This document shows positions 1,996 through 49,958 of a DNA stretch of 64,000 bases, piece by piece. The notes under the pieces are model-generated. The model was not told the origin of the DNA. It did no database searches and worked only from the letters and a program-made list of their open reading frames with translations. The stretch's first letter is position 1. Every line of letters starts with the position of its first letter. The stretch is taken from positions 306,361-370,360 of the forward strand of contig CAZAZU010000001.1 of NCBI GenBank assembly GCA_964490105.1, given 5' to 3'. The translations under genes were made by a program, and so were the position numbers. Source of the DNA: an uncultured Gammaproteobacteria bacterium. Its GTDB lineage: Bacteria > Patescibacteriota > Microgenomatia > Levybacterales > UBA12049.

Positions 1996-3603
1996 TTGAT
2001 GAAAAATATAATAAACAAAAATAAAAAAACACTAAAATCTTTTCATATTTTTTTTATTCTACTTATTGTCACCCTGATTATTCCAAGACTTATTGTTTTT
2101 ATATCGAGACAGGAATACATGGAAGGGTTTGCTTACTACTACTTCTTTGCAAGATCAATAATTATTGATCACAATTTTCCTTTAATTGGCCCTGTCGTGG
2201 GAGATGTTGGTGGATTTGCTCAGGGAGCAGGATGGTTCTATTTGCTCACTATCCCCTTTTTTATTTTTAATGGAAACCCATTCGGAATGTCAGTGCTAAT
2301 TTTTTGTATTAGTATTGTCACTTTATTGCTAGGGTCCATCATCGGATACACTATTATTGGCAAACGAGAGGGAGTATTAATATCTATTCTACTTGGCACC
2401 TCCCCGTATTTAATTAGTTGGTCCAATGATATTTGGCCACCATATGTTGTCCCCTTTATCGCTGTTCTTTACATTTTAGGATTATTACTTTTTCTTAAAA
2501 TAAATAAAAAAAGGTATTTTTTTATCATGCCTATTTGCCTCGGTGCAATGGCTCATTTTGAAATTGCATCTCTTGGACTATTATTTCCGAGTTTTATTTC
2601 TTTGACAGTATTTTTATTCATAAAAAATAAAATTATAAAAAAAGACATATTAATATCAGCAATATTTTTTGGGTCTTTTTTTATCCCACATCTAATTTAC
2701 GACCTAAAAAATAATTTCTACAACTTAAAAGGCATATTAGATTTAATATTATTTAAATCATCATCAGATAGATCGATTACACTCTCTGCAACTCTTGCTG
2801 ACAGGACACATTTACTAATAACTGATTTCATCAAAGTTTTTCCTACACCAGAAACTGGCACATTGTTATTATTTATTCTAATCTTACTTTTTGGCTACCT
2901 AAAATTAATAGGAGATAAAAAAATTAAAAACTGGCAAAAGATTTTTACTTCTTATTTACTAACCTCAATTTTATTAACCTTTATAAGCGTGTGTATTTTA
3001 CCTGTAGAAAGAGCTTCCTTCTGGTGGTTGACGTATTTAACAATATTTTATATTTTCTTTTCTGGCTTAATCACTTCATATATTTATTCAACTAACTATA
3101 GATTGCTTAAAATTATTTTGACAGTCATACTCAGCATTTTTGCATATTCATTTTTTAACAACTTTCTTATTATTTTAAATAATGAAAAACAATTACGATC
3201 AGTAAAGTATGTAATTAGTAAACAGTCACCTATTGAATTTATCTACAAAGATTCTCAAGATAAACCATTTAGAACATTATTTATAACTGGCGAGAAGGAC
3301 GTGGTAGACTATAAATACATGCTATGGTATGTTGGAAAAACTGATTTTCCCAACTCTCAGGCGATTAAGTTACTTGATTTAAACTACACACTTAAAGGCG
3401 GTGTGTTATTTAGCTACGATGAATCTACTCAATTTAGTAATTTAAAAAATGGATTATATTATTTAATTATTTCTAAAAACTCAGTAGAAAATGGTCACAT
3501 TGACAAAATATTAAAAAATGTAAATCTCGACTTAAAAGATACTAACTACATTGATCCATCTGGTTATTTTGAGGTTAAAAAATTTAATATTGATAAAAAT
3601 TAA
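1996..3603 (+). CDS. Polytopic membrane protein, putative GT-C fold glycosyltransferase
   Basis: 535 aa. The N-terminal about 400 aa are highly hydrophobic with multiple TM segments, followed by a soluble C-terminal domain. This architecture and the locus context fit ArnT/PMT/YfhO-like proteins. Confidence 0.4.
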   Translation: MMKNIINKNKKTLKSFHIFFILLIVTLIIPRLIVFISRQEYMEGFAYYYFFARSIIIDHNFPLIGPVVGDVGGFAQGAGWFYLLTIPFFIFNGNPFGMSVLIFCISIVTLLLGSIIGYTIIGKREGVLISILLGTSPYLISWSNDIWPPYVVPFIAVLYILGLLLFLKINKKRYFFIMPICLGAMAHFEIASLGLLFPSFISLTVFLFIKNKIIKKDILISAIFFGSFFIPHLIYDLKNNFYNLKGILDLILFKSSSDRSITLSATLADRTHLLITDFIKVFPTPETGTLLLFILILLFGYLKLIGDKKIKNWQKIFTSYLLTSILLTFISVCILPVERASFWWLTYLTIFYIFFSGLITSYIYSTNYRLLKIILTVILSIFAYSFFNNFLIILNNEKQLRSVKYVISKQSPIEFIYKDSQDKPFRTLFITGEKDVVDYKYMLWYVGKTDFPNSQAIKLLDLNYTLKGGVLFSYDESTQFSNLKNGLYYLIISKNSVENGHIDKILKNVNLDLKDTNYIDPSGYFEVKKFNIDKN

Positions 3604-19192: not shown

Positions 19193-19925
19193 ATAATTTT
19201 ACTAAATATTCTTCTTCTATTTTCATTCTTATTATAAAGATAAGAGAAACCATAAGCTCATGAATTCCCATCGTAGACTTACCATACTTTCTTGTGGTAA
19301 TTGTTACCGGTACTTCTCCAAACCTAAAACCCTTTCTGTTTAACTTATATGTTATTTCAGATAATGTGATGAATCCTGAAGATTTCATTTCTATACTGGA
19401 AAGATATTCAACCGCTTTCCTATCATAGAGCCTATAACCGGAAGTATAATCAGATAGTTTTATATCTAGCATTACATGAAGAAATTTATTAATTAATTTA
19501 CTTAATATTTTTCTTTTCGCTGATACCCTAACAGTTTTTCCGCCTTTGATGTATCTTGATCCTATCACCATTCCTAATTTATCTTTTTGAATTTTGTCTA
19601 AAAATCTTTTTAGGTGAGTTGTGTCATGGGAAAAATCAGCATCTATTTCATAGAAATATTTTGCATTTTTATACTTGAGTCCGTACTTAAAACCCTCTAA
19701 TACAGCACTTCCCCTTCCAAGCTTCCTACCCCGTGTTAAAAGGTCAATATTTTTAAATCTTTTTATTGCTTGCTTGGTTTTAAAACTTTCTCCTTTGTTG
19801 GAATCATCAACTATTATAATCCTAGAATTTGGAAACTCTTTCCTTATTCCTTTTATAACCATCGGAATATTTTTTGATTCATTATATGCAGGAATAATTA
19901 AATTAATGCTTGCTAGCTTTACCAT
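19179..19925 (-). CDS. GT2 polyprenyl-phosphate glycosyltransferase (DPM1/GtrB/ArnC-like)
   Basis: LIIPAYNESKNI...IIVDDSNKGES is the typical N-terminal GT2 DxD region. About 250 aa. Confidence 0.6.
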   Translation of the reverse strand: MVKLASINLIIPAYNESKNIPMVIKGIRKEFPNSRIIIVDDSNKGESFKTKQAIKRFKNIDLLTRGRKLGRGSAVLEGFKYGLKYKNAKYFYEIDADFSHDTTHLKRFLDKIQKDKLGMVIGSRYIKGGKTVRVSAKRKILSKLINKFLHVMLDIKLSDYTSGYRLYDRKAVEYLSSIEMKSSGFITLSEITYKLNRKGFRFGEVPVTITTRKYGKSTMGIHELMVSLIFIIRMKIEEEYLVKLSKQF

Positions 19926-21919
19926 AATCTTTCAATATTACCATCTGAGACCTTCAAAATGCTGACTAGAATTTTATCATTAAACTCAAAATTTTTTATT
20001 TGTCGTAAATTATAAAATAAGGGGACATTTGATAAATTTATAACACAGTAAGACTCTTTGCAGGATTTCATTTTAATATTTGTCGTTCGATTATCTTTTG
20101 TGATTATTTTTAAAGTAAAATAATCATCAGTTACATTTCCACTATTCACCAGCAATATTATCTTATCTGAGCTTACATTATTATTTTCTAAATATTTGTT
20201 AATTTTTTTCTGATTGAAATCTTTTGTTAAAAATTTATTGTCTGCATTTATGATATATCTCTCTTTATTTCTTCCTTCAGATAAAGGTATGGATTCTAAG
20301 TTAATATCTAAAAGATGTTTTTTATACTCACTTGCAAGTTTGTAGTTATTATTCAAAAAGAAATCGGAGTTTTGGTGTCTTTCGAGTATTAGAAAATTCC
20401 CCGCAGAATCCTTAACTGAATAATTACCAAGAATGTATTTCAGTTCATAAACACCTCTAATATAATTTGGAACTTCATCTTGAATCGCTTTATTTCGTGT
20501 ATTAACTACGACATAATTTATATTATTTTTAAGATAATTAATATTCATGATCTGGGAAGTTTTAGAAGAAGCTTCATATATGCTAGTAAAATAGGGTTGT
20601 TTTTGTTTTAAAAGTACATAGAAAATAGGATCACCTGGATAGCTTAAAATTTTATTATTAAAATTTTCATATTTCATCAGCTTCTGGATAACTAATTTAT
20701 ATTCATCAGAATTCGCAACACTACCCATATTTAAATTATGGCAATTTTTTCGTGTCGGGTTAGAAAAGTTTGATTTAGTTATTCCGGAGTTATTTCCATA
20801 TGCAAGATAAAAAATACCAATTATTAACATCACTACAATTAAACAGGTTATTCTTATTAATGTATTATTTTCTAATCTTTTCTTGGACTGGGTAATAATT
20901 TCCCAAAAAATTATTGCAAATAAAACAAATGCGATGAAAGATATATTATTTTCCATTAGCCTGACTATGTTTTTCTGTTCAAGTAAAATAATTGTAAAAA
21001 TTAAACCAATTTCAAAGTATGTATAAAGGGATTTTTTCCTTTTCTGAACAAATTTATAAGTTATAAAAAGAATGGCAAAACTTAAAACTCCTACAGAAAA
21101 TAAATTATTTAGTGAAATAAACAGATTAAACAAAGGTGTTTTTGATAATAATGGAAATTCAGGAAGACTTACTGTTAAATAGTACCAAAACATTTCTAAG
21201 GCATTATTTTTAGTTAGATAATATACAAAAGGTAGTAGACCCAAAAAGCTCCCAAAAACGAAATAGCTTAATCTTATAAATATCGGCCTTAGAAATAATT
21301 TTGTTTTTACCTTTCTAAAATTTGAGAGAACTTCCACAAATTGAAAAAGGAAGAAAATTATAAAACCAAATATTCCTTGATCATGAAAAAGCCAGAATAT
21401 GATAGATAAAATAAAACCTGAAAGAAAATAAAATCTACTGCTATCTCTATTCGCGTAAAAACAATAAGACAAAACAGTTGATATTGCTAAGGAAATCCCA
21501 TATCTATTAAAAGTTCCAGTATTTGCGATAAAAATTATAAAAAATAAAAATGGAACAAAAATAATATAGGTAATTTGCTTTAATTTAAAAATTTTTCTAA
21601 AGAAGAAAATAAGTGTATTTAAAACTAAGAGAGAAAATATTAAATAAAGAATTAAAAATAATGTATTTCCATCTCTAAAATATGGCAATAGTCCGTAAGG
21701 ATAATATAGATCTCTATAAGGGATGAAATTGTTTGAAGCCGAATAGTTCCATGTTAAAAAAGTTTGAAAATCAAAATCTGAAAATCTTAAATATCCCGTA
21801 CAAAGGCTAAAATAATTAACTACTAATAATGTGATATTTAAAAATATTACTAAAAATAATTCATCTAAATTTTTTTTTAAATATCCTGAGTAAATTTTTA
21901 TTTTTTTCTTATATACCAT
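19919..21919 (-). CDS. Large polytopic membrane protein with a soluble C-terminal domain (possible GT-C glycosyltransferase)
   Basis: 666 aa. The first about 400 aa are very hydrophobic and F/L/I-rich, and the C-terminal about 250 aa are hydrophilic. Confidence 0.35.
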   Translation of the reverse strand: MVYKKKIKIYSGYLKKNLDELFLVIFLNITLLVVNYFSLCTGYLRFSDFDFQTFLTWNYSASNNFIPYRDLYYPYGLLPYFRDGNTLFLILYLIFSLLVLNTLIFFFRKIFKLKQITYIIFVPFLFFIIFIANTGTFNRYGISLAISTVLSYCFYANRDSSRFYFLSGFILSIIFWLFHDQGIFGFIIFFLFQFVEVLSNFRKVKTKLFLRPIFIRLSYFVFGSFLGLLPFVYYLTKNNALEMFWYYLTVSLPEFPLLSKTPLFNLFISLNNLFSVGVLSFAILFITYKFVQKRKKSLYTYFEIGLIFTIILLEQKNIVRLMENNISFIAFVLFAIIFWEIITQSKKRLENNTLIRITCLIVVMLIIGIFYLAYGNNSGITKSNFSNPTRKNCHNLNMGSVANSDEYKLVIQKLMKYENFNNKILSYPGDPIFYVLLKQKQPYFTSIYEASSKTSQIMNINYLKNNINYVVVNTRNKAIQDEVPNYIRGVYELKYILGNYSVKDSAGNFLILERHQNSDFFLNNNYKLASEYKKHLLDINLESIPLSEGRNKERYIINADNKFLTKDFNQKKINKYLENNNVSSDKIILLVNSGNVTDDYFTLKIITKDNRTTNIKMKSCKESYCVINLSNVPLFYNLRQIKNFEFNDKILVSILKVSDGNIERLW

Positions 21920-39760: not shown

Positions 39761-40321
39761 CTATTTTATGCTGATGAGTTCTATCTCAAAGGCTAAGGGT
39801 GTATTGGGTGGAATTGGTCCCGATCCATTTGGTCCGTATGCCAAATCAGAAGGAATTAACAATTTTCGTTTACCGCCTACTTTCATTCCTACCAGACCCT
39901 GGTCCCAACCGGCAATAACTTCTCCAGCTCCTACATTAAAACTAAAAGTCTGATTTCTATCATAAGAGCTATCAAATTTTCGACCGTCTAGAAAAGTTCC
40001 GAGATAATTAACTTCAGCTGTATCTCCGGATTTCACCTCTTCCCCCTGTCCTACTTGTATATCTTGAATTGTAAGTTGTGTTACATTTTGCATAGCTTGT
40101 GGCGCCTGAGTTGGAGCAATTGTCGCTTTCTGGGATTGCATTCCTATTGGACTTTCGCTTTGAGACACAACTGCCTCAGGGTTTCCAAAATTTGAAAGCT
40201 CCTGTTTTGCTTTTTCGCTCTCGCTCGGCTTTATATTATTCTTTGTGTATACTATCACACCGCCGACAATTAAAAAACATATAATTCCAAATATTATAAT
40301 CCGCGGGTTTAGCATATTCAT
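39761..40321 (-). CDS. FKBP-type peptidyl-prolyl cis-trans isomerase, membrane-anchored
   Basis: C-terminal FKBP domain ...GAGEVIAGWDQGLVGMKVGGKRKLLIPSDLAYGPNG...LAFEIELISIK. N-terminal TM helix. Confidence 0.75.
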   Translation of the reverse strand: MNMLNPRIIIFGIICFLIVGGVIVYTKNNIKPSESEKAKQELSNFGNPEAVVSQSESPIGMQSQKATIAPTQAPQAMQNVTQLTIQDIQVGQGEEVKSGDTAEVNYLGTFLDGRKFDSSYDRNQTFSFNVGAGEVIAGWDQGLVGMKVGGKRKLLIPSDLAYGPNGSGPIPPNTPLAFEIELISIK

Positions 40322-40379
40322 AAAAAAAGATTATATTAAAAAATTTACCTGTTGCATAGTGTGTTATAATAATTTTCCA

Positions 40380-40820
40380 ATGATTAAGATTCCTCTATTT
40401 CTTCTTCTCTTTCTACTATCTGCTATTCCTGCTTTTGCCGAAAGCTCAAGTAAGGTTGAGATTAATAACCGGGTAAATGTGAACTCGGATTCATCAACTA
40501 ATACTAATTGCCAGACCAAGATAAGAACAGAAACAAATGGAAATGTTACCGAATTTGAGTCAGATGATTGTGCTGATATATCTACAAAAACTACAAATGG
40601 TAAATCTGAAATAAAAGTAAACGGTGAAGTAATAGTTATAACTGGTACTTATCAAAATCCAAACACCTCAGGAACTCCAACCCCCACAATAAATGAGGAC
40701 AAAGATAATGACAATATTAATGATAAACTAGAAGAGTCAATTAAGTTTGTGGAGGAAGAAAAAAGCCTTATTGAAACAATTGAGAATTTAATTAAGAAAG
40801 TTTTTTCCGTTTTTGACTAG
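40380..40820 (+). CDS. Secreted Thr/Asn-rich protein of unknown function
   Basis: Signal peptide MIKIPLFLLLFLLSAIPAFA with a predicted cleavage site after AFA. The internal ATG was chosen because the upstream part of the ORF is non-coding-like. Confidence 0.4.
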   Translation: MIKIPLFLLLFLLSAIPAFAESSSKVEINNRVNVNSDSSTNTNCQTKIRTETNGNVTEFESDDCADISTKTTNGKSEIKVNGEVIVITGTYQNPNTSGTPTPTINEDKDNDNINDKLEESIKFVEEEKSLIETIENLIKKVFSVFD

Positions 40821-43800
40821 ACCTAAAGGTTAAGTAATAAACTACCGGTATAAAGAAAAGCATTATAGTTCCCGAGAAAGTAAGACCTGCGATAATTGCT
40901 CCTCCCAGACCTCTCCACAATGGATCAGATAAGGTAATTGGCGTCAAACCTAAGATAGCTGTTAAAGACGTTAATGCGATCGCTTCAAGCCTGCTTGCTG
41001 CCCCCTCCGCAATTCCCTCAATGAAAGACATCTTTGTTTTTTCATTGGCCTGAATCTTATCTACGATTAAAATTGAATTCTTAACTACAATTCCGAATAA
41101 CGCTAGAACTCCGATTAACGCAGGGAAAGAAAGCGGTGTATTTGATAAAGCAAAAATAATAAATACTCCAGAAATTGAAAGCGGAATAACTAAAAGGACT
41201 ATAAAGGCTTTTCTAAATGATGAGAATTGTAAGACCATTGTAACTAGAATAAGTAAAAATGAAAGTATCATCGCAATTAAAATCGAATTAACAGATTCCT
41301 GATTTTCTTCGTTAACTCCACCTGTTTTCCATGAGTATCCTGATGGCAGATCCAGAGTATCCGCATATTGTTCAAGTTCTTTGTTCACATCTTGAATTGA
41401 GTAACCTTGTGTAACAGAAGCCGTCACAGAGATTGACCTCTTGGCATTTTCTCTAGTTATTAAAGTCGGACTGGTTGCCAACTCAAGTCTTCCAAGTGAA
41501 GTTAAAGGAATCTGTTCGCCGGTAACAGGGTTTGCTATCAATAGTTCATTAATGTTCTCGACAAATTGAGTGTCATCTGAAAATCTTAGCGTTATATCCT
41601 CCTCCGAGGAATCTTGGGCGTCAAATTTTACGCTTGATAGTTCAAGTCCGCTCGCATAAGTCCTTAGCGTTAATCCGATTTGCGAAGAAGATATAGAATT
41701 CTCAGCTAACTTTTGTTTATCCGGAATAAATGTGATCTTACTTGTTCCTGGCTTTATAGATTTATTTACATTAGCAGCTCCAGGCTTCGACTCTAAATAT
41801 GATGCGACCTCATCTGCGTATTTATCTAAAAGCGCTAAATCGTTTCCTAGTAATTTTATTTGGATGTCTGCTCCAGCTGGCGGTCCTCCGCTGGCTTCAT
41901 TTACGGAAAACTTCCCCTTGGAATAATCTGAGAATTGCTTTCTTATGTCCTCAGCTATTTCAAACGAACTTCTGTCCTTATCTTCTTCAAATACTAAAGT
42001 AAACAGAAAACTATTTGCTTCTGCCCCTCCTGCACCGCCAAATTCATCAGGAGCCTGACCTAGATTAAGTGAAACTGTTTCTACATCATCCTGTTTTTGA
42101 AGCTGAGAAAAAATATTAAGGGCCTCTTTTTTGGAAGTTTCAACATTTGTTCCAGGAGGAAGCTCTACGGAAACACTTAACTGATCAGCATCAGTCTTTG
42201 GGAAAAATTCATTCTTAACAAATCCTAATGGCACTAAAAGATATGAAAAAATTGAAAAAATCACTACTATTATTACAGTTGTTTTTAGCCATCTTTTTGA
42301 CGAAAGGATTTTAGTAATGAGTGCCTGATATCTGATGGATACGACTTCAAAACTAATAATACCTTGATCGAAGTATTTTCTATATTTTCTAGATGGTTTT
42401 GAAATTCTATTATCAAGTCCCTTAAAAGCAATGCTGCGAAGCTTATATAAAAGAAATAGAAATAATCCAAAGATTATGAATTCAACGAGTAACAATGGTG
42501 TTCTTCCTGAAATGGCAACTAGTGCTCCAGCTAAACCAACGGTAAAAAGAATTCCGAGTAATACTATTACTCTTTTTGGAGCTCTTGGCTTTAATAGATA
42601 GGCAATTATTGGAAGGGTAATAAACATTGCCACAAAGAATGATGCTATTAGGGTCGCTGATACTACAATTGGAATTGGTTTAATGAATTCCCCGATTATA
42701 CCTCCTGAAAGAAGTAACGGGATAAAAGCCCAAACTGTGGTTAAAGTCGTAGTGAAAATTGGGATGATGAAATCGCGCCAAACTAAAAGCCCTGTCTCTT
42801 GCGGAGTAAATTTTCCGGATCTATAGTAAGCAGTCATCGCTGAAATAACCACAATCGTGTCATCAACCAATAATCCCAAGGCTAAAAGAAGTGAAAAGAA
42901 AGAAATAAACGAAAGAGCAACTCCAAAAAAATTCATTATTCCAAAAGTGATTAAGAACGTTAAGGGGATCGAAATAGAAGCGACAACCGCCTGTCTTATT
43001 CCTAAGAAAATAAATAAAGCTATAAACACCAACGTAATAGTTAAAATAAAGTCACGAATTAATTCGTTAAATTGATCATCAATTTCCTTGGATACATCTG
43101 AAGTTGTAAAAATACTAAATTGACCATCGTACAACCCTAAAACCTCATCCGTTACTTCTTTCGCATCCTCTGCGGTAGCGCTTATATTGGCGTTCTCTGT
43201 TTTATAAATAGAAAAACTAACTGCTTGACCTGCCGGCTCCTTATGATCTGCTACAAAACTTTGAAGCTGTGAAGGCTTGGACCTTTTAGATACTGTCGCT
43301 ATATCGGAAAGATTTACAATGGCACTTCCCGAGTTAACTTTTATGTTTCTGATATCATCAATGTTAGTAAGTGCAGGATCTATGCTAAGAGTAAAACTTG
43401 ATGAATCAGTCTTTAACGTTCCTGCCGGGAAAGACTTAGACGCATTTGATAGTGCACCCATTAAAGTCTGGGGATTAAACCCATAAGTGGAAATAGCCTC
43501 TGGCTTTAAAACAATTTGAATCTCCTGCTCCTCAAGCCCCGAAATCCTAACCTGATCCACAGTGGAAATTGCCTCAAGCCTGTCTCTTAGAGTCTTTGAG
43601 AGCGTAATAAGAGATGCTGCATCACCCGTTTTACTTGTTAATGAAAACGACCAAACAGGAAATTGCTCAAAATCCACCTTGGTGGTGTTTGGTTTTTGAG
43701 CGTCAGCGGGTAAAGTTACAGAATCTACTGCTGCCTTTGTGTCACTCGCGGCTTTATCTGCATCTACCCCGGTGTTAAATTCAATCTGAATTAGAGAAAC

Positions 43801-44112
43801 AGAATCTCGGGAAGTAGAAGTAAAGGTTTTAATGTTCGAAACTCCGCCAATCTCATCCTCTAATGGATCTGTAACAAGCGATTCAACATCTGCAGGATTT
43901 GCTCCCGGTAGAACTGTACTGACAACTACATAAGGGATTTTTATTTCAGGATTAAGTCTCCTAGGAATACTCTTATAACTAAAAGCTCCGAAAGTTATGA
44001 TTATGATAAGGAGTAATACTAAAAGTCTTGGATTGGCTAAATACTTAGCTTGTATAGATGTAGCTAATTTTTTATCAAAGTGAAGATGTTTAAGATATGA
44101 CGCATGTTTCAT
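40792..44112 (-). CDS. RND family efflux transporter permease (AcrB/AcrD/AcrF-like)
   Basis: 1106 aa with a 12-TM architecture and two large periplasmic loops. It is translationally coupled to the adaptor gene upstream. Confidence 0.8.
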   Translation of the reverse strand: MKHASYLKHLHFDKKLATSIQAKYLANPRLLVLLLIIIITFGAFSYKSIPRRLNPEIKIPYVVVSTVLPGANPADVESLVTDPLEDEIGGVSNIKTFTSTSRDSVSLIQIEFNTGVDADKAASDTKAAVDSVTLPADAQKPNTTKVDFEQFPVWSFSLTSKTGDAASLITLSKTLRDRLEAISTVDQVRISGLEEQEIQIVLKPEAISTYGFNPQTLMGALSNASKSFPAGTLKTDSSSFTLSIDPALTNIDDIRNIKVNSGSAIVNLSDIATVSKRSKPSQLQSFVADHKEPAGQAVSFSIYKTENANISATAEDAKEVTDEVLGLYDGQFSIFTTSDVSKEIDDQFNELIRDFILTITLVFIALFIFLGIRQAVVASISIPLTFLITFGIMNFFGVALSFISFFSLLLALGLLVDDTIVVISAMTAYYRSGKFTPQETGLLVWRDFIIPIFTTTLTTVWAFIPLLLSGGIIGEFIKPIPIVVSATLIASFFVAMFITLPIIAYLLKPRAPKRVIVLLGILFTVGLAGALVAISGRTPLLLVEFIIFGLFLFLLYKLRSIAFKGLDNRISKPSRKYRKYFDQGIISFEVVSIRYQALITKILSSKRWLKTTVIIVVIFSIFSYLLVPLGFVKNEFFPKTDADQLSVSVELPPGTNVETSKKEALNIFSQLQKQDDVETVSLNLGQAPDEFGGAGGAEANSFLFTLVFEEDKDRSSFEIAEDIRKQFSDYSKGKFSVNEASGGPPAGADIQIKLLGNDLALLDKYADEVASYLESKPGAANVNKSIKPGTSKITFIPDKQKLAENSISSSQIGLTLRTYASGLELSSVKFDAQDSSEEDITLRFSDDTQFVENINELLIANPVTGEQIPLTSLGRLELATSPTLITRENAKRSISVTASVTQGYSIQDVNKELEQYADTLDLPSGYSWKTGGVNEENQESVNSILIAMILSFLLILVTMVLQFSSFRKAFIVLLVIPLSISGVFIIFALSNTPLSFPALIGVLALFGIVVKNSILIVDKIQANEKTKMSFIEGIAEGAASRLEAIALTSLTAILGLTPITLSDPLWRGLGGAIIAGLTFSGTIMLFFIPVVYYLTFRSSQKRKKLS

Positions 44113-44116
44113 TCAG

Positions 44117-45616
44117 TTAATTAATTGGCTTTACCGGATCTCCCTGGATCACATTTCTATTAAGAATAACTTGATCAGATTCCGATAATCCTTTTGTCAC
44201 CTCAACAAAGCGTCCTACAACTTGTCCAAGGCTTACTTTTCTACTTTCCGCTTTTCCATTCTTAACTACAAACAAATATGCCTGATCTTGAGTCTGGAAA
44301 ACTGAATCAATTGGCACAAATGGAATAACACTTCCCGTATTTGGGAAATCTACTGGAATCTCGATTGTGATATATCCTTTGTCGGTTACGAACGAAGCAT
44401 ATTCAGCGGGAATTGCGTATTGAGCTGTGTAAAGTGAACCATCAGTCGCTTCTTTGGAAACATAAAACGGCACCGACTCAAATGACTCGCTTCCTACATG
44501 AAGAGTTGATGCGCTGGCTCTGCCGACCCCTTGAGCAACTTCTCGATTTAGAAAAGCTACAGCGATCAGACTTTCAGATGCGCCTGAAACTTGAGCTATT
44601 GGCATTCCAGGAGAAAGAACCTGTCCTTCTCTCACAAAAATTCTCTCCACCACACCCGCAACTGGACTTGCTGGATACATAAGAGCTTCATTAATTTGAG
44701 CTAGTGTAAGACTAAGGCGTGTTACCTCCAGATTAAGACCAAGGGCTTTTTTCTGAATTTCCAGCTGCTTTACAGCAATGTCTTTTGATAGATTAGAGAT
44801 TTCTGCTGGAATCTTATCAGACGACCCGCTGTATTCAGAAGCTCTAAGACCTGCTTCTAACTGACTGTTTCCAGACATGAGCTGACTTCTCAATTGTTTT
44901 GTTTGTAGAATCGCCGAATCATTTGCTCCGCCCACATTTGTAGCCTCCAGTTCATTCTGTTGCGCCTCAAGGGTAGTTAGTATTTCATTGTTAAGCCCGA
45001 TTAAACTTCTGGTAGACTCAAGCGATTGATTACTAATACTTCGAAGTTCATCCGCATTTTGATCTGATTTTTCTGCTAATTCTTTCTGCTTATCAATTAA
45101 TTCAACATTTGTTTTATACGTATCTTTTGCATTTTTATATTGGGCTCCCGCCAACTGCCTTTGAACCGAAAAAGCATTTCCCCCCTGATAATTCGTAGAC
45201 ATTGATATTAAGTTTGTACCCGCTCCTATTTCTTGGCCTACTTCAACATTTATACTTTGTACTACTCCAGCCCCAAGAGATACTACTCTAATAACTCCTG
45301 ATTTTTCGACCTGCGCTTGAACTGTAATCTTCGGAGACTGACCTATCGTATACACCTCTACCTCTTTTGTTGGGAGAGAAGTCTCAGTGGCTTCTGGTTT
45401 TGGTTTATTAATAACGTTACTGATTATGATCAAACCTAGAAGCATTAATAGAAGTCCAAGAAATGTAGCAACCGGTCGCTTTTCTGCGTGACCTATAAAT
45501 TTTTTGTAGTAAACTTTTCTTTTTTTATTTGCGATTTCCAAACGAGGACTTAATGTTTTTCGCGCTTTAAGATAATTTTTTCTAACAGACTTATATAAGT
45601 TATTTAATAAATTCAT
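44117..45616 (-). CDS. Efflux RND periplasmic adaptor subunit (HlyD/MFP family)
   Basis: N-terminal TM anchor, coiled-coil-rich middle and beta-barrel C-terminus. Operonic with the RND permease. Confidence 0.65.
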   Translation of the reverse strand: MNLLNNLYKSVRKNYLKARKTLSPRLEIANKKRKVYYKKFIGHAEKRPVATFLGLLLMLLGLIIISNVINKPKPEATETSLPTKEVEVYTIGQSPKITVQAQVEKSGVIRVVSLGAGVVQSINVEVGQEIGAGTNLISMSTNYQGGNAFSVQRQLAGAQYKNAKDTYKTNVELIDKQKELAEKSDQNADELRSISNQSLESTRSLIGLNNEILTTLEAQQNELEATNVGGANDSAILQTKQLRSQLMSGNSQLEAGLRASEYSGSSDKIPAEISNLSKDIAVKQLEIQKKALGLNLEVTRLSLTLAQINEALMYPASPVAGVVERIFVREGQVLSPGMPIAQVSGASESLIAVAFLNREVAQGVGRASASTLHVGSESFESVPFYVSKEATDGSLYTAQYAIPAEYASFVTDKGYITIEIPVDFPNTGSVIPFVPIDSVFQTQDQAYLFVVKNGKAESRKVSLGQVVGRFVEVTKGLSESDQVILNRNVIQGDPVKPIN

Positions 45617-45721
45617 TTTTGAGGGTTTAGCCTGAATTATTTAGGCACACCCTGAAGGGCAAGTCGAGGCAGATTGAGGCAGGAGAAGATTATATTAAAG
45701 CTTAAGCCTAAAGTCAATTAA

Positions 45722-46204
45722 TTAGTGTACCCTTGACTGAGGCCTCATCGGAAAATCTACATTTGCACTCGCATGCTGCAAATTTTCAGATACAGGTGAT
45801 ACGCTCAATTGTCCTAATGCAGCGATTACCAAAGGATCTAATTCCATTTCTTTTGTCCTTTGACCAAATAGTCTAATGTCAGCTACTTTTGGCGAGCTGC
45901 CTTCCCAGTTAGCACTTGCCATTCCAGCCATAACAATATCATCATTTCTTAAAACAACAATAGTTAAAAAGTGTGGCTTCAAAGATACTGTTCCAAGGGG
46001 CATAACTTGCGCAATGTAATCGATGGGGCCGTCTTCATTAAATCGAAAACTTCCTTCAAAACTTGTGGCACTTCTACCAGCTATGCGATTTTTTACATAT
46101 ACAAGGCTAAAAAGCGATTCCCATTGTCTCTCTGCTTGACTGGCAAGCTCAAGCTGAAGAATTCCGATTCTTTCTCCCTTAGGACCATTTTCTCTGCTAC
46201 CCAT
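45722..46204 (-). CDS. Hypothetical protein (160 aa, no signal peptide) in the GC-rich island
   Basis: ORF with coding-like composition and no recognisable family. Confidence 0.4.
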   Translation of the reverse strand: MGSRENGPKGERIGILQLELASQAERQWESLFSLVYVKNRIAGRSATSFEGSFRFNEDGPIDYIAQVMPLGTVSLKPHFLTIVVLRNDDIVMAGMASANWEGSSPKVADIRLFGQRTKEMELDPLVIAALGQLSVSPVSENLQHASANVDFPMRPQSRVH

Positions 46205-46235
46205 AGGCTGGGATTATAACACAACTAAATTCTGG

Positions 46236-46260
46236 CCTCGCAAGGGGACGCCTTGCGAGG
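46236..46260. promoter_or_regulatory. Perfect 10-bp GC-rich inverted repeat (cctcgcaagg ggacg ccttgcgagg) between divergent island genes
   Basis: Seen directly: a 10-bp stem and 5-nt loop. It lies 32 nt upstream of the minus-strand ORF start and 36 nt upstream of the plus-strand -35 element. Confidence 0.5.
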
Positions 46261-46295
46261 CTAACTCATCAAGATCAGATAATATTACGAGGCTG

Positions 46296-46324
46296 TTGAT
46301 TTACTACGGGGCGTCCTGTATAAT
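46296..46324 (+). promoter_or_regulatory. Near-consensus sigma70-type promoter (TTGATT-17-TATAAT) abutting the ATG of the Tat-signal ORF. This implies a leaderless transcript.
   Basis: TTGATT is at 46296-46301 and TATAAT at 46319-46324, with a 17-nt spacer. The ATG at 46333 is 8 nt downstream of the -10. Confidence 0.45.
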
Positions 46325-46332
46325 TGCGCCTT

Positions 46333-47358
46333 ATGCAAATTAGAGAACAAGGTGTCACACAAGCACAATATTCTAGAAGAGAAGTCCTAGAAAAATCTGC
46401 AAGAACCGCAGCTGTAATGGTAATGATGCCACTTGCCGCAGGCGCTATAGAAGGCTGCGGCCAAACAGGCACTTCAAGTGAAGTTTATCGTGGGCCTTTC
46501 AACGAACTCGAAGGAAGACCTCTTATAACCGATGAAAGATTTAAAGCTTTAAAAGATGCCCTAGTGGGTTCAGGTGATCCGCTCCTTGGAAAAATCGGAA
46601 AAGATGCAGCTAACTTAAAAAGCGGTAATGTAGATCTTAGCGAATTCCCCGACTTCGTAAATCCATCAACCTTTCCAATGGTTATCACTAGAGATATGTC
46701 AGGCCAATCTCTTGCTGCACTAAACTCTGATGGCGAAGAAAGCGATGGATTTTTACTCGGTAATGAATCAGGTATGAGAGAAATTAAGTTTATTAAGCCA
46801 CTTTCAGTTGCAGTAAATGTAGGATCTGATTCAGTGCTAGATAAATCTGATCCTATTGAAGAATCATTATTTCTAGCAAAAGAGACTTTAAATTTAATGC
46901 TAGATACTCAAGTATTTGCAGAAGTTGATCAGCTTCTTATTCCCGTAGATCAAGCACTTTATAATTCTAACGGCACTCCTATTACAGATAGGGACACTGT
47001 TGAGCGAGCTGGATATTCTGTAGGATTCCGCGAAATGTCAGCAAAAGATTCTCAGTTATCAGCAGTTTTAGATATTGCTCCAGCTTTAATTATGGCTCCT
47101 TCAATTATAAGGCTCCTTGATTCAGGGAAAATTTCACTGGGAAGTGAACCTCTTGGTAACTTCTTTACTGTTGCGGATTATGTAATGAGTAATCCAGCTC
47201 TTTATGAACTTTGCATTAGACTTAACGAAACCTGGGCAAATTCTGATAGAGTAACTGGACCCGAGGCATTTGTTTTTGAGCTTGTTCAACCAGCAATTCT
47301 AGATGCCATAACTGCAATTCAAGGAAGATTATACACCGGCCAGCCTCAATCCAACTAA
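46333..47358 (+). CDS. Hypothetical exported protein with a Tat-like signal peptide
   Basis: N-terminus ...YSRREVLEKSARTAAVMVMMPLAAGAIEG. The RR-x-hydrophobic motif, then a hydrophobic stretch and an AxA-like site, fit a Tat signal. Confidence 0.45.
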   Translation: MQIREQGVTQAQYSRREVLEKSARTAAVMVMMPLAAGAIEGCGQTGTSSEVYRGPFNELEGRPLITDERFKALKDALVGSGDPLLGKIGKDAANLKSGNVDLSEFPDFVNPSTFPMVITRDMSGQSLAALNSDGEESDGFLLGNESGMREIKFIKPLSVAVNVGSDSVLDKSDPIEESLFLAKETLNLMLDTQVFAEVDQLLIPVDQALYNSNGTPITDRDTVERAGYSVGFREMSAKDSQLSAVLDIAPALIMAPSIIRLLDSGKISLGSEPLGNFFTVADYVMSNPALYELCIRLNETWANSDRVTGPEAFVFELVQPAILDAITAIQGRLYTGQPQSN

Positions 47359-47373
47359 CTTTTAAATGGGCAA

Positions 47374-47402
47374 AAGCCTACCGGTTAAAGTAGGCTTTTT
47401 TA
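47374..47402 (+). terminator. Rho-independent terminator downstream of ORF 46333-47358
   Basis: Stem aagcctac (47374-47381)/gtaggctt (47390-47397), loop cggttaaa, followed by TTTTTT. Confidence 0.55.
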
Positions 47403-47418
47403 AGAAACAAGACTAAGC

Positions 47419-48474
47419 TTAGAAAATCATACTTTGATCGTGTCCGTTATTCTTTTCTGGCTTATCTTTTTTATCCTTTTTATCAGGCTTACTATTATCC
47501 TTATGTTTTTCTACATAAGAAACACAAGCTCCCTGATTTTTGAATGATGGATTATTAAATTTCTCCCATCCACCGTTCTTGCACTCATTTTTAGAAGTTG
47601 GCGGTCCAACTAAAACAGGTCCGCTTAATAAACTTAAATTGTCGATTAAGAAACCATTTCCTAATGTAGCAGGAGCAGCTGTTCCTCCAGTTCTAAATAA
47701 AAGTGAGTCAACTGGGCGTGTTGGATTCCCTTCACAATATCTAAAGTAATCTTCCCAGCTTGTTCCTGTGTGCTTTAACACTCCGTCTACGTAGATTTTT
47801 ACAACGTCATTTCTTTCTCCGTCTACAAAATCTACTGAGAACTTAATAGAGTGTGGAGCTGATCTAGATATTGTTGCTATATCGGTCTCTATGAAATCAT
47901 CACCGACTCCGCAACCATTCGTGCTGTCTCCAACTGATCCGCCGAATGGCGCTATATCTTGATAATCATCGAAGAAAACATGTATTCCGTCAGCTTGATC
48001 CTCAAATCTTAAATAGCTCATTCTTGCTCCGTCTCCCCTATCAGGAGATACGGACATTACGAGTCCTACTTGTTGAGATCCTGGAACTGCTGAAGCTATA
48101 GAAAATTCACTTTCGAAGTGTCCTTGTCTTACTCCTCCGCTCATACCGTTATTTACTGCTGAAGTTTCTCCAGCCTCATTACTTAGAGACTTTGAAAATG
48201 TTTGATCACCAAAACATCCGCTTGTAACTCCATTTGAAATTCTAAATGATTGTGCTCCAAAAGCGGCATATCCATAAGAATTTACAGAGACAGAGTGATC
48301 GTAAATTGCACATCCAGACCCTGCAGCTCCTGTACTGCTCCATCCATCTTGAGCGTTAATTACACCGAGATTGTATGGTGGATTTTCGAAATTAACTGAA
48401 AGAGAGTCAGCCGAAGCGGATCTTGCTAGAAGGAAAAATGACAAAACAAAGAAAACTGAAATAATTTTTTTCAT
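47419..48474 (-). CDS. Secreted protein of unknown function with a Lys/Asp-rich C-terminal tail
   Basis: Sec signal MKKIISVFFVLSFFLLARSASA. A strong SD (AAGGGGGTG) lies 8 nt upstream of this ATG. The ORF-track GTG at 48483 is less likely. Confidence 0.5.
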   Translation of the reverse strand: MKKIISVFFVLSFFLLARSASADSLSVNFENPPYNLGVINAQDGWSSTGAAGSGCAIYDHSVSVNSYGYAAFGAQSFRISNGVTSGCFGDQTFSKSLSNEAGETSAVNNGMSGGVRQGHFESEFSIASAVPGSQQVGLVMSVSPDRGDGARMSYLRFEDQADGIHVFFDDYQDIAPFGGSVGDSTNGCGVGDDFIETDIATISRSAPHSIKFSVDFVDGERNDVVKIYVDGVLKHTGTSWEDYFRYCEGNPTRPVDSLLFRTGGTAAPATLGNGFLIDNLSLLSGPVLVGPPTSKNECKNGGWEKFNNPSFKNQGACVSYVEKHKDNSKPDKKDKKDKPEKNNGHDQSMIF

Positions 48475-48566
48475 TATATTCACCCCCTTTCTTATGATTG
48501 GACTATAACAGATTGCTATATCAAGATAAATAGCACAATATGATCTAAATAGGATCAGTATTCTGA

Positions 48567-49958
48567 TTAATTTTTCGTTAGTATTTTTATCTTTTTTTCG
48601 TTACGGGGGTCCATTATGAATTTATTTAATATTCTATAGGTATCATAATCAAATCTATATTCTTTTCGAAGTGACTCTAAATCAAACGATTCATCTTTAA
48701 TACTTCCCAAATAACACCATTTATCTATCACATGCGACTCCTCCCTCTCCCCAAGTTCTTTTATAATGATTGGATTATCAAACCTCCAAGGTCTAATTTT
48801 TTTATTATAAAAACCCTCATCAAAACGAATATTATATTTCAAATTATTCTCCAATCCATTACATGCCCCTTTACATTGTCCTAAATGAAAATAAAAACAA
48901 AGTCCCTTGCCTTTTTCAAGACCGAGCAAACGAGGACATAAAGAATATTCCTTAGCGACTTTATGCAAAAATTCTTTTGTTTGTTTTATAGATTTGAAAA
49001 CTCCCAAAATATTTTCAATTTCACTGATATCGATTTCATCTAGTATTTTTATATCCACGCCGTTAAATCCATTCTCATTTGTAGTTCTTAAAAGAATAGG
49101 AAGCTTTCTGGACTCACGAAGAAGTCTATTAAACAAAGGCTTTTGCTCTTTAATAAGAGTCGACTCTAAAAGAAGCGCCCCAAGTTCCCCTGCAGTCTCG
49201 ATAAACTCTATGCTTCTTACTTCTCTACTTATTTTCATGTCAGTAGTTGAAAGATGATCATTTGAAAAATGCGATAAAACTCTATCTCTTATATTTATAC
49301 TTTTGCCGATATAGAGAACTGATCCATTTTCTCCATAAAAAATGTAGACTCCGGGATTTTCTGGAATTGTATCGAAAAATGCAGGGTCTATATTTGCGGG
49401 AAGTGTTGGCTTCTTCATAACAATCCCAATCGCCTGTTCGAAAAGATCCGGCTTTATAGAACCTTGAGCTTTCTGATAAAACTCCCATAAAACTTTTGCG
49501 TCATCAAATGCTCTGTGACGGTTCTCACATTTAATGTTAAAGTTTTGAATGATCGCATCAAGGTTATATCTTTTCTGATTTGGATAAAGAAGACGAGCGA
49601 GTTTTACTGTGCAAAAATGTTTGGAGGAGAATTTAACACCATATCTTTTAAATTCATTTCTAATAAATCCATAATCAAACCGCACGTTATGTGCGACAAA
49701 TATGGAATCTTCAAGAAGCGCAGAAAGCTCATCTTTTATTTCTTCAAATGTAGGCGCTTTCTCAAGAGCAGTTGCACTAATACCAGTCATAGATTGAATA
49801 AAAGGATCTACGTAAGTTTGGGGATTAACTAAAGTTTTAAACTCTTTTACTAATTCTCCTTCAACTACTTTTAAAACTCCGACTTCAATTATTCTATTAT
49901 ATGAAGCATTCAGGCCTGTGGTTTCTGTATCTATAAAACAGATGGACTTTGGCAGCAT
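48567..49958 (-). CDS. DEDDh 3-prime-5-prime exonuclease (DnaQ-like) fused to a GIY-YIG nuclease domain (Cho/UvrC-like)
   Basis: N-terminus FIDTETTGL (Exo I), HNVRFDY and HRAFDDA motifs. C-terminus GIY-YIG: PGVYIFYGENGSVLYIGKSINIRDRVLSHF. Confidence 0.7.
   Translation of the reverse strand: MLPKSICFIDTETTGLNASYNRIIEVGVLKVVEGELVKEFKTLVNPQTYVDPFIQSMTGISATALEKAPTFEEIKDELSALLEDSIFVAHNVRFDYGFIRNEFKRYGVKFSSKHFCTVKLARLLYPNQKRYNLDAIIQNFNIKCENRHRAFDDAKVLWEFYQKAQGSIKPDLFEQAIGIVMKKPTLPANIDPAFFDTIPENPGVYIFYGENGSVLYIGKSINIRDRVLSHFSNDHLSTTDMKISREVRSIEFIETAGELGALLLESTLIKEQKPLFNRLLRESRKLPILLRTTNENGFNGVDIKILDEIDISEIENILGVFKSIKQTKEFLHKVAKEYSLCPRLLGLEKGKGLCFYFHLGQCKGACNGLENNLKYNIRFDEGFYNKKIRPWRFDNPIIIKELGEREESHVIDKWCYLGSIKDESFDLESLRKEYRFDYDTYRILNKFIMDPRNEKKIKILTKN

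Follow-up and report, generated by a model that had tools for sequence, protein, structure and literature searches.

Three open reading frames, A, B and C, adjoin an MFP-RND efflux pair in a 64-kb window (the whole stretch of DNA analysed here, 64,000 nucleotides) from a genome of ca. 785 kb. Did they reach this genome together and recently, as a foreign module, or do they belong to it? A preliminary description, prepared from the sequence, took them for a self-contained, horizontally acquired module, for example a toxin/effector with its delivery or immunity partners. The total GC content of the three genes (0.39-0.41, against a window average of 0.33), the lack of annotation for all three, and their compact arrangement with signals of its own all speak for such a recent arrival.

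Layout of the locus

The features of the region are as follows.

40792..45616, minus strand: MFP-RND efflux pair (MFP, 44117-45616; RND permease, 40792-44112), a conserved flank
45689..45717, minus strand: promoter-like site of the MFP-RND operon, TTGACT-17-TATAAT (11/12), between the A stop codon and the MFP start
45722..46204, minus strand: gene A, ORF for a 160-aa soluble protein of a clade-restricted family
46213..46221, minus strand: putative extended -10 element of A, TGTTATAAT, read from the sequence 8 nt upstream of the A ATG
46235..46261, unstranded: in the spacer of the divergent genes A and B, a perfect GC-rich inverted repeat (arms of 11 bp, loop of 5 nt), GCCTCGCAAGG-GGACG-CCTTGCGAGGC
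46296..46324, plus strand: promoter-like site of B, TTGATT-17-TATAAT, of leaderless type, its end 8 nt ahead of the ATG at 46333
46333..47358, plus strand: gene B, coding for a precursor of 341 aa, in an ORF that starts with the TTG at 46324
47372..47399, unstranded: inverted repeat AAAAGCCTAC-N8-GTAGGCTTTT between the convergent genes B and C (I8, 100% complementary)
47419..48474, minus strand: gene C, coding for a precursor of 351 aa, in an ORF that starts with the GTG at 48483; the ATG at 48474 is preceded by an SD-like AAGGGGG
48567..49958, minus strand: DEDD exonuclease fused to a GIY-YIG/Cho-like nuclease, the other conserved flank; syntenic in the related loci L001 and L025

The preliminary reading of the individual proteins holds. 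A is a 160-aa ORF with neither a signal peptide nor a TM segment, in B, SRREVL precedes a hydrophobic stretch and a cysteine, C has both a Sec signal and a lysine-rich tail, and none of them has a Pfam or NCBIfam match. Searches against PADLOC and PHROGs likewise gave no match for A, B or C, and no toxin, immunity, defence or phage domain was found in them with any of the four collections, which argues against a toxin/effector with delivery or immunity partners. Those accessory proteins of related loci that were scanned against Pfam, PADLOC and PHROGs also gave no match. Neither an integrase nor a tRNA nor an Rfam match lies within the block or flanks it, the neighbouring genes are housekeeping genes, and the only direct repeats around the block are AT-rich 13-nt chance repeats, with no att repeats among them; a recently mobile module sits badly with this context.

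Base composition and codon usage

The three genes had been described as more GC-rich than a background of roughly 30%, with GC-rich third codon positions. Measured against the 55 ORFs of the window, the total GC content of A (0.412), B (0.401) and C (0.389) does lie above the mean of 0.335 (sd 0.043; z = +1.3 to +1.8), but not above that of other genes of the window, namely FtsZ (0.421), ParB (0.405), FKBP (0.401) and MFP (0.393). The 30% background is due to a low-GC glycosylation cluster located within the first 31 kb; in the second half, the average is ca. 0.35. The third positions are not GC-rich: GC3 is 0.292, 0.235 and 0.248 for A, B and C, respectively, versus a window mean of 0.260 (sd 0.035; z = +0.9, -0.7 and -0.3). 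The excess resides in GC1 and GC2 and follows from amino-acid composition (more Gly, Ala, Pro, Arg and Ser, less Lys, Ile and Asn) rather than from foreign codon usage. In synonymous codon-usage deviation (chi2/df), A, B and C take ranks 24, 48 and 54 among the 55 ORFs; the highest of the three values, 1.82 for C, is the second highest in the window (maximum 1.98) and is matched by the RND gene (1.81).

GC3 and codon usage of the block are thus inside the distribution of the window, and native core genes are equally GC-rich, which argues against recent acquisition. An old transfer of the block, fully ameliorated since, is conceivable. The locus is a cautionary case: a local rise in GC within an AT-rich genome may stem wholly from amino-acid composition, with no horizontal transfer, where exported and membrane proteins are poor in Lys, Ile and Asn.

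Gene content in related genomes

Loci of relatives (denoted by L numbers) differ in what stands between the pump and the nuclease. In L001, the only relative that covers all of the stretch from Cho to the pump, the whole of it is syntenic, with the order Cho-C-B-acc246-A-MFP-RND. The order in L002/L013 is PMT-C-B-acc246-A-acc169-acc197-MFP, and L004/L015 and L024 have still other orders. A is missing from L016, and both A and C from L025. Identities to the window are 89-93% for RND, 85-90% for MFP, 66-94% for A, 74-90% for C and 25-80% for B. They are discordant from gene to gene: in L002, A is 94% and B 37% identical, while in L001 it is B that reaches 80%, with A and C at 74%. The discordance points to independent recombination of the three genes, and each of them is found without the others elsewhere. 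Together with five accessory families absent from the window, A, B and C make up a pool of at least eight gene families, which combine differently in L001, L002, L004, L007, L016, L024 and L025. All close relatives whose sequence reaches upstream of the pump draw on this pool. Values of dN/dS are 0.09-0.24 and thus indicate purifying selection.

In relatives whose MFP is 61% identical, the block is absent and Dus or PheS adjoins the pump (Cho-Dus-MFP in L018, where the Cho-like nuclease is also near the pump, and PheS-MFP in L017). In L022/L023 (MFP 73%, B 34% identical), the pump is adjoined by bPH_2-B. Absence of the genes is seen only where the pump is no more than 73% identical, and L022/L023 retain B all the same. 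Several contigs break at the slot: three (L011, L012 and L014) stop on the upstream side of MFP, 60-183 bp away from it, and two (L015 and L016) stop within B.

The absence of the block at 61% MFP identity is what a recently acquired module would predict. The genes nevertheless recur, with gaps, in relatives whose pumps are 85-93% identical, are syntenic in L001, and assort independently, each with its own signals. A self-contained module of recent arrival is, in our judgement, hardly credible. What stands of the original proposal is its accessory side. Judged from these comparisons, the block is accessory and lineage-restricted, with gain, loss and replacement of genes, and is "island-like" in the population-genomic sense; the notion of a self-contained import does not stand, since composition is host-like, signs of mobility are lacking and the genes move separately.

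By the same comparisons, the region is a flexible chromosomal slot, in which conserved flanks enclose a content, an order and a degree of allele similarity that vary among close relatives. We conclude that A, B and C are probably native, lineage-restricted genes in a flexible slot of ca. 3 kb of a Patescibacteria (Microgenomatia/Levybacteria-like) genome. The slot would be bounded by the gene for the Cho-like nuclease and by the MFP-RND efflux operon. Its genes would be turned over one at a time as related strains recombine, a process for which the conserved flanks, and perhaps the GC-rich hairpins at the junctions, would supply homology.

Flexible islands that carry envelope or surface genes between core genes are known as the metagenomic islands of Pelagibacter, Prochlorococcus and Haloquadratum. 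The slot resembles such islands of streamlined bacteria in its fixed place between core genes, its variable content and order, its deeply divergent alleles of exported proteins, its lack of mobility genes, and the breaking of MAG contigs at its position. It differs from them in its small size (ca. 3-6 kb) and host-like GC3, and in holding mostly tiny unannotated cytoplasmic proteins plus two exported ones, rather than glycosyltransferases or O-antigen genes. The locus thus adds a small hypervariable slot from an uncultured, host-dependent lineage.

Intergenic elements and transcription

The 11-bp hairpin in the A/B spacer is the sole strong GC-rich hairpin in the 64 kb (z = -3.0; expected count, 0). 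Near-identical hairpins occur at gene junctions of the block in relatives, three in L002 and three in L004, and some of the relatives' junction hairpins run into T-runs. In L001, the acc246 gene stands where the window has the A/B hairpin. The hairpin of the window is most probably a terminator left behind by a cassette since lost; it could conceivably be an operator.

Short genes parted by repeated hairpin-forming junction elements are also a feature of integron cassette arrays. An integron-type array was nevertheless rejected: no integrase was found among the Pfam-scanned neighbours or the called genes of related loci, the stems (27-31 nt, GC-rich, often with T-runs) are terminator-like, and gene orientations are mixed.

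The B promoter-like site lies in a 45-nt stretch, start codon included, that is identical in L001, where it directly follows the acc246 stop codon. The arrangement TATAAT-8 nt-ATG, which suggests that the A transcript is leaderless, is identical before A in L001. Both A and B begin in this way, as do many other genes of the window; promoters of a leaderless type so typical of the host are a further point against recent import. C is among the few window genes with a strong SD. The inverted repeat between B and C has T-runs on both strands and looks like a bidirectional intrinsic terminator, although a consensus terminator scan made no call there. A, B and C would accordingly read as separate transcription units, with leaderless-type promoters for A and B, a Shine-Dalgarno sequence for C, and a terminator common to B and C. 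Of the strong promoter, hairpin operator and terminator initially ascribed to the block, a B promoter-like site, an 11-bp hairpin and a B/C repeat with T-runs can all be pointed to.

The promoter-like site of the MFP-RND operon is kept in seven of nine relatives regardless of the gene upstream, and the pump therefore need not rely on transcription from A.

Gene A and the efflux pump

A appears to be a clade-specific cytoplasmic protein. Its homologs form six clusters at 66-99% identity, its dN/dS against L001 is 0.089, and no match was found in Pfam, NCBIfam, PADLOC, PHROG or the sequences of the PDB. A comparison with the accessory proteins of 164-205 aa (hhalign, E = 0.047) makes a distant paralogy possible. 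In relatives, A is in every case on the pump-proximal side of the slot, and it would be one among several small soluble proteins that populate this side.

The proximity to the pump raises another explanation, namely that B, possibly with small proteins of the A type, is a dedicated accessory of a single-membrane MFP-RND exporter, with B as a Tat-exported lipoprotein acting on the outside of the pump and A as its partner or regulator in the cytoplasm. A, acc164, acc169 and acc205 are indeed always immediately upstream of the pump and on the same strand, B and MFP-RND are divergently oriented in L022/L023 as well as in the window clade, and in the Levybacteria relative L029 another MFP-RND pair has C 1 kb downstream of it. 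However, in L021 and L026/L027 the 8 kb of flank examined around the B homologs holds no pump, the pumps of L017, L018 and L020 are without A, B and C, A is replaceable or missing (L016, L025), and a pump was found in the flanks of none of 80 metagenomic C loci. A conserved promoter of its own serves the pump, whichever gene precedes it, and B falls to 25% identity while the pump stays at ca. 90%, which ill suits a tight physical partner. A dedicated pump accessory is thus quite improbable, and the genes are better placed among the contents of a flexible slot. Some functional link to the pump is conceivable, as B adjoins an MFP-RND pair in two lineages and C does so in one further lineage.

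Gene B

The B precursor consists of a twin-arginine signal (SRREVLEK; signal region, SRREVLEKSARTAAVMVMMPLAAGA), a hydrophobic region, Cys42 and an alpha/beta domain of ca. 300 aa. The RR pair and the cysteine are invariant in four orthologs, and RR is nearly invariant in 41 family members. Sixty-two remote relatives, of 300-400 aa each, were found. Residues K183, E184 and D247 are invariant in the family. Three family members match PF10518; B of the window itself stays below PF10518. The lipobox site reads I-E-G-C, with Glu at -2, versus the consensus [LVI][ASTVI][GAS]C; the orthologs and many relatives share its cysteine. B is probably a Tat-exported lipoprotein anchored at Cys42, as far as its signal region tells. 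It would be exported folded via Tat and then held by its lipid anchor as a surface protein. PMC9166423 reports TatA and TatC from Microgenomatia. No TatA-like motif was seen in the sequence examined.

The structure of B was predicted with high confidence (pLDDT 87.8, pTM 0.83). Comparison of the model with the PDB and BFVD gave no structural match (best PDB E = 0.13, TM ca. 0.1), and B contains no cofactor-binding Cys/His motif. B represents a Patescibacteria-restricted family, probably of Tat lipoproteins, whose structure is predicted confidently yet lacks any solved relative.

Tat-exported lipoproteins are known from Streptomyces and haloarchaea. B is like them in its S-R-R-x-[FVL]-L motif, hydrophobic stretch and conserved cysteine, and unlike them in its atypical lipobox and in a mature domain that has neither a PDB or BFVD match nor a cofactor Cys/His motif.

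At one and the same locus, B alleles are deeply divergent (25-80% identity, versus 85-93% for the flanks), which may reflect diversifying pressure from hosts or phages. A bolder extension of the flexible-slot reading can be formulated: B would found a new fold, as a Tat-exported, lipid-anchored surface protein that works with the neighbouring single-membrane MFP-RND exporter or serves as a variable contact point for hosts or phages, and the slot would be a cassette array, marked by a conserved hairpin, in which recombination exchanges such proteins among strains. In this full form, the proposal is decidedly unlikely.

Gene C

The length given by gene callers is 351 aa. The protein comprises a Sec signal peptide, a concanavalin-A-like jelly-roll, a two-Cys C-terminal module (CKNGGW...NQGxC) and a disordered Lys-rich C-terminal tail, and carries MKKIISVFFVLSFFLLARSASA/DS. 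Invariant motifs include DRGDGxRM and WEDY. The AF2 model (pLDDT 82.8, pTM 0.77), compared with the PDB by Foldseek, had 66 matches at E<=1e-3, and the top matches listed are ConA-like folds (probability 1.0, E from 6e-7 to 1e-4). The best of these are the PL36 alginate lyase Aly36B (6kcv), the calreticulin globular domain (3pos), legume lectins (1f9k, 2pel), GH16, PL7 and LamG/neurexin; a weak profile match to the neurexin LNS domain was also found. According to the model, C is a secreted ConA-like beta-jelly-roll exoprotein. It thus resembles the ConA-like lectin/glucanase superfamily in being secreted and in its predicted beta-jelly-roll sandwich, but stands apart from its structural matches by TM-scores of 0.3-0.5, identities of 10-17%, its own motifs and the distinctive two-Cys module. 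No sequence-level match to PL36/PL7 lyases or GH16 hydrolases was found, the likeness being one of predicted fold, and no Pfam family was found in 57 members of the C family. Most likely, C would bind or cleave a glycan at the cell surface, and its Lys-rich tail would hold it on an anionic wall.

The homologs of C fall into more than 2000 clusters at 55-90% identity and occur in single copy, the GC of their loci ranging over 0.32-0.71. The family is unusually conserved and very widespread, with ca. 57-60% identity across genomes of 32-71% GC. C alone could be an old inter-phylum transfer, fully ameliorated, that landed in the slot, with A and B as native inventions of the lineage. Genome GC hardly divides the family (identity averages 0.60 inside either class, low-GC or high-GC, and 0.57 from one class to the other), its labels include Chloroflexi, Anaerolineales and Patescibacteria, and C is more conserved against L029 than the adjacent pump (75% identical, versus 54% for RND and 42% for MFP); the codon deviation of C and its atypical SD fit the same idea. 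Its nearest neighbours, however, are those of its own clade (91-92%), followed by other low-GC loci (70-77%), its GC3 is host-like, the uniform identity of ca. 60% may simply mirror strong constraint, and no donor can be named. We consider such a transfer possible, though unlikely, and place C with A and B among the native genes of the slot.

B and C represent two unannotated exported envelope families for which Pfam-type models would be worth building; such surface proteins rank as leading candidates for contact between episymbiont and host. Some members of the C family are fused to beta-helix or RTX domains.

Three unannotated genes between an efflux operon and a nuclease gene

Three ORFs, designated A, B, and C, occupy a variable slot of ca. 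3 kb (~45.7-48.5 kb) between the genes of an MFP-RND efflux pair and a Cho-like nuclease gene.

Features of the slot and its flanks (window coordinates)
40792-44112, minus strand, RND pump gene (PF00873, 551 bits)
44117-45616, minus strand, MFP gene, HlyD/YknX-type adaptor
45717-45689, promoter-like site of the pump, TTGACT-17-TATAAT, between A and MFP
45722-46204, minus strand, A, ORF of 160 aa
46235-46261, perfect hairpin
46324-47358, plus strand, B; ATG 46333 is the probable start, giving 341 aa
47372-47399, inverted repeat between the convergent B and C
47419-48483, minus strand, C; the probable start is ATG 48474 behind AAGGGGG, giving 351 aa and matching gene callers
48567-49958, DEDD-exonuclease/GIY-YIG Cho-like nuclease gene, on the opposite flank from the pump

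The three ORFs are real, unannotated genes, as had been proposed: scans of their products against Pfam, NCBIfam, PADLOC, and PHROGs yielded no usable match. The signal features first noticed in them were also recovered by reading the protein sequences. The N-terminus of B contains, in this order, SRREVLEK (twin-arginine-type), a hydrophobic stretch, and Cys42; C has a classic Sec signal ending in ASA/DS and a Lys-rich tail, while A has none of these.

Base composition and codon usage

The preliminary description took the genes for a GC-rich, horizontally acquired island. The overall GC content of the window is 33.1%, and its 55 ORFs have a mean GC of 0.335 (s.d. 0.043) and a mean GC3 of 0.260 (s.d. 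0.035). The total GC of A, B, and C (0.412, 0.401, and 0.389, respectively) is indeed in modest excess, but core genes are just as high (FtsZ, 0.421; ParB, 0.405; FKBP, 0.401; sigma-70-like, 0.399; MFP, 0.393). The GC3 values of the three genes (0.292, 0.235, and 0.248) are near the window mean; their third codon positions are therefore not GC-rich, contrary to the original claim. The surplus lies in codon positions 1 and 2 (GC1 0.49-0.56, GC2 0.41-0.43), and is due to amino-acid composition, with Gly, Ala, Pro, Arg, and Ser increased and Lys, Ile, and Asn decreased. By deviation of synonymous codon usage, A, B, and C rank 24th, 48th, and 54th among the 55 ORFs; the value for C, 1.82, matches that of RND (1.81), the window maximum being 1.98. 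The 30% GC background against which the island had been judged reflects a low-GC glycosylation cluster that takes up the first 31 kb; mean GC in the second half is about 0.35.

The low-GC cluster (window positions 1-31000, GC 0.25-0.31) consists of glycan-synthesis genes, including those for GT2, several PMT_2-type glycosyltransferases, C-methyltransferases, and an epimerase, together with unannotated ORFs at 501-1274, 1996-3603, and 19919-21919 (GC 0.25-0.28). Its downward departure from the window mean is at least about as large as the upward departure of the slot.

Gene order in relatives

Homologous loci (L numbers) were compared with the window. Among relatives and named homologs, the labels Levybacteria, Woesebacteria, and Patescibacteria are found. 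Where RND and MFP have 85-93% identity to the window proteins, a shared gene pool, including accessory families (acc, named by length in amino acids), fills the upstream side of the pump wherever the contig covers it.

Gene order in relatives
L001: Cho-C-B-acc246-A-MFP-RND
L002/L013: PMT_2-C-B-acc246-A-acc169-acc197-MFP
L004/L015: B-acc246'-C-acc246-A-acc171-acc197-MFP
L024: similar to L004/L015, with an acc205-like gene replacing A
L016: B-acc246-acc164-(acc169 fragment)-MFP, without A
L025: acc164-like, acc246, acc197, 135-aa ORF, then B and Cho, without C and A

The window slot is the minimal version among these arrangements, and no remnants of accessory genes were found in it. Allele identities to the window form a mosaic. 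Compared with L002, window A is 94% identical but B just 37%; compared with L001, B is 80% identical and A and C are 74%. Window C is ~90% identical to the L002, L004, and L024 copies. The B protein of L025 is only 25% identical to that of the window, yet the neighbouring Cho, GT4, and GDE are 87-90% identical. Farther out, the pump has other neighbours: RND-MFP is divergent from bPH_2-B-MFS in L022/L023 (MFP 73% identical), Cho-Dus-MFP is found in L018 (MFP 61%), PheS-MFP is found in L017, and A, B, and C are all missing from a Woesebacteria locus. Given the shared pool in close relatives and other genes further out, the block is clade-restricted and flexible, yet inherited inside the clade. 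Several MAG contigs break inside B or within 60-183 bp of the MFP start, a pattern expected of assemblies when strains differ at a variable slot.

No tRNA, Rfam family, integrase, or att-like or otherwise meaningful flanking repeat was found around the block. With host-like GC3, genes shared by relatives of the clade, and no mobility signature, the notion of a self-contained, horizontally acquired module is not supported. An integron-like cassette array was rejected, since no integrase turned up among the Pfam-scanned genes beside the slot or those called in related loci, and the hairpins at gene junctions resemble terminators. We conclude that the locus is a small native, probably recombining slot of independent genes beside an efflux operon; two of the genes, B and C, encode envelope proteins from unannotated families. 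Slots of this type are a known genome feature, of which this is a further example.

The acc246 family comprises cytoplasmic proteins of 246-256 aa. Relatives carry one or two copies, which are divergent at 35-58% identity (L001 9220-9960; L002 12285-13028; L004 1065-1814 and 3236-3997; L024 5198-6728), and the window carries none. It has no match in Pfam or PADLOC, nor, for the L001 copy scanned, in PHROGs. The acc169-172, acc197, acc164, and acc205 families are equally unannotated, and the accessory proteins scanned gave no usable match in Pfam, PADLOC, or PHROGs.

MAGs L011-L018, titled 'uncultured Gammaproteobacteria bacterium', bear the Patescibacteria-type locus at 61-93% protein identity; as taxonomic labels, these titles appear generic or wrong.

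Proteins A and B

Homologs of A form six clusters (66-99% identity) in a single clade and occupy the pump-proximal side of the slot in every case. No family or defence match was obtained for A, and its matches to PDB sequences were noise only. The A family weakly resembles the accessory proteins of 164-205 aa in hhalign (E=0.047), a score too weak for paralogy to be claimed.

A word-indexed search for B found a single relative; against 1.8 billion representatives, HMMER retrieved 62 proteins, all full-length (300-400 aa). The RR motif is kept across the family, and many members have a Cys after the hydrophobic stretch. Invariant residues are K183, E184, and D247. The sole Pfam match is PF10518 (TAT_signal), in three members; TatA and TatC are reported from Microgenomatia (PMC9166423), and no TatA-like motif turned up in the 64-kb window, which is only part of the genome. 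The B profile found only noise among PDB sequences. The family merits attention for a fold that seems to be unrepresented. MFP-RND adjoins B in two lineages; elsewhere B lies near Peptidase_M73-like and NUDIX genes (L021) or near sortase and PBP genes (L026/L027).

That the B alleles of a syntenic locus diverge so deeply suggests either allele replacement or diversifying pressure on a surface protein. As a test of diversifying selection, dN/dS was calculated for the window-L001 pair, in which dS is saturated. The values for A (0.089) and B (0.105) correspond to net purifying selection, as do those of every gene in this pair, and positive selection was not detected. The case for diversification therefore leans on the deeply divergent B allele classes.

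Protein C

Homologs of C form more than 2000 clusters at 55-90% identity and lack Pfam domains; the exceptions are a small number of longer proteins with a fusion to beta-helix or RTX repeats. From 57 sequences, AF2 predicted a beta-sandwich, then a small helical module in which two Cys are conserved, and a Lys-rich tail that is disordered (pLDDT 82.8, pTM 0.77). Foldseek against PDB matched concanavalin-A-like folds, with PL36 alginate lyase 6kcv at E=6e-7, as well as calreticulin, legume lectins, GH16, PL7, LamG, and botulinum HC/NTNH domains. Since TM-scores are just 0.3-0.5 and identities 10-17%, the predicted ConA-like fold class is secure but membership in any matched family is not. The C profile found noise among PDB sequences, apart from a weak neurexin LNS match consistent with this fold. 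We infer that C is an exoprotein that binds or cleaves glycans and is very strongly constrained; the extreme conservation and breadth of its family merit attention.

The most conserved motif of the family, SPDRGDGARMSY (residues 147-155, with an invariant RGD inside), is probably a structural or metal-binding loop.

A metagenome scan yielded more than 533 C loci, of which 80 were kept (GC 0.32-0.71, a single copy each); none of the 80 has RND/MFP genes in its available flanks. Mean identity is 0.60 inside either GC class (low or high) and 0.57 across the two, and the nearest proteins to window C are from its own clade, followed by other low-GC loci. In L029, a Levybacteria relative, C lies 1 kb downstream of a different MFP-RND pair and is followed by Peptidase_M73, S26, LTD, RTX, and sortase genes; identities to the window are 75% for C, 54% for RND, and 42% for MFP. 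A less likely possibility is that an old transfer brought C into the lineage.

In other Patescibacteria (L029 7192-10653; L021 5143-5751), C and B homologs adjoin Peptidase_M73 (camelysin/TasA-like), S26 signal-peptidase, LTD, RTX-repeat, and sortase genes, and thus sit in neighbourhoods for cell-surface assembly.

Promoters, hairpins, and terminators

The promoter-like site of the pump is kept in seven of nine relatives regardless of the upstream gene. A promoter-like TTGATT-17-TATAAT ends 8 nt ahead of the B ATG, and the entire stretch is identical in L001, where it lies directly 3' of the acc246 stop codon. Upstream of A, TGTTATAAT is found 8 nt from the ATG in the window and L001 alike. 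Because starts lacking a Shine-Dalgarno (SD) sequence, with TATAAT near the start codon, are common across the window, the signals of A and B are host-typical; C (AAGGGGG) is among the few window genes with a strong SD.

Many window genes lack an SD and carry a TATAAT-like box 6-12 nt ahead of the start codon (e.g., those starting at 9834, 12404, 12480, 14773, 33541, 40321, 54647, and 56042), which suggests that leaderless or near-leaderless mRNAs are widespread in this genome.

The hairpin at 46235-46261 is the sole strong GC-rich hairpin in the 64 kb. L002 and L004 each carry three near-identical hairpins (GCCTCGCAAGGCC-N-GGCCTTGCG...), placed where genes of this block adjoin, and T-runs follow some of them. 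Since the window hairpin is located exactly where acc246 sits in L001, we read it as a putative terminator left behind by a lost cassette. It borders on the -35 position of the A promoter as well, and so might act as an operator. The inverted repeat at 47372-47399 resembles a terminator acting in both directions; a consensus terminator scan made no call there.

A repeated GC-rich palindrome of ~30-45 nt (TTAGCCTCGCAAGGCC[AT]GGCCTTGCG...) marks cassette junctions in the variable block of relatives (L002 12244-12254, 14115-14126, and 14797-14808; L004 1019-1029, 1864-1874, and 3194-3204; L007 2798-2820). The L004 copies are nearly identical across ~45 nt, and the palindrome might serve as a common terminator or as a substrate for recombination.

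On the far side of the pump, a 191-aa ORF (40245-40820, plus strand) lies opposite to the RND and FKBP genes, overlapping the RND 3' end by 29 nt and the FKBP 5' end by 77 nt. Its only domain matches are weak ones to Trp_ring and PepSY. It looks like a real gene, since every relative, even the distant L018 and L022, has it with the same overlapping placement (37-63% identity).
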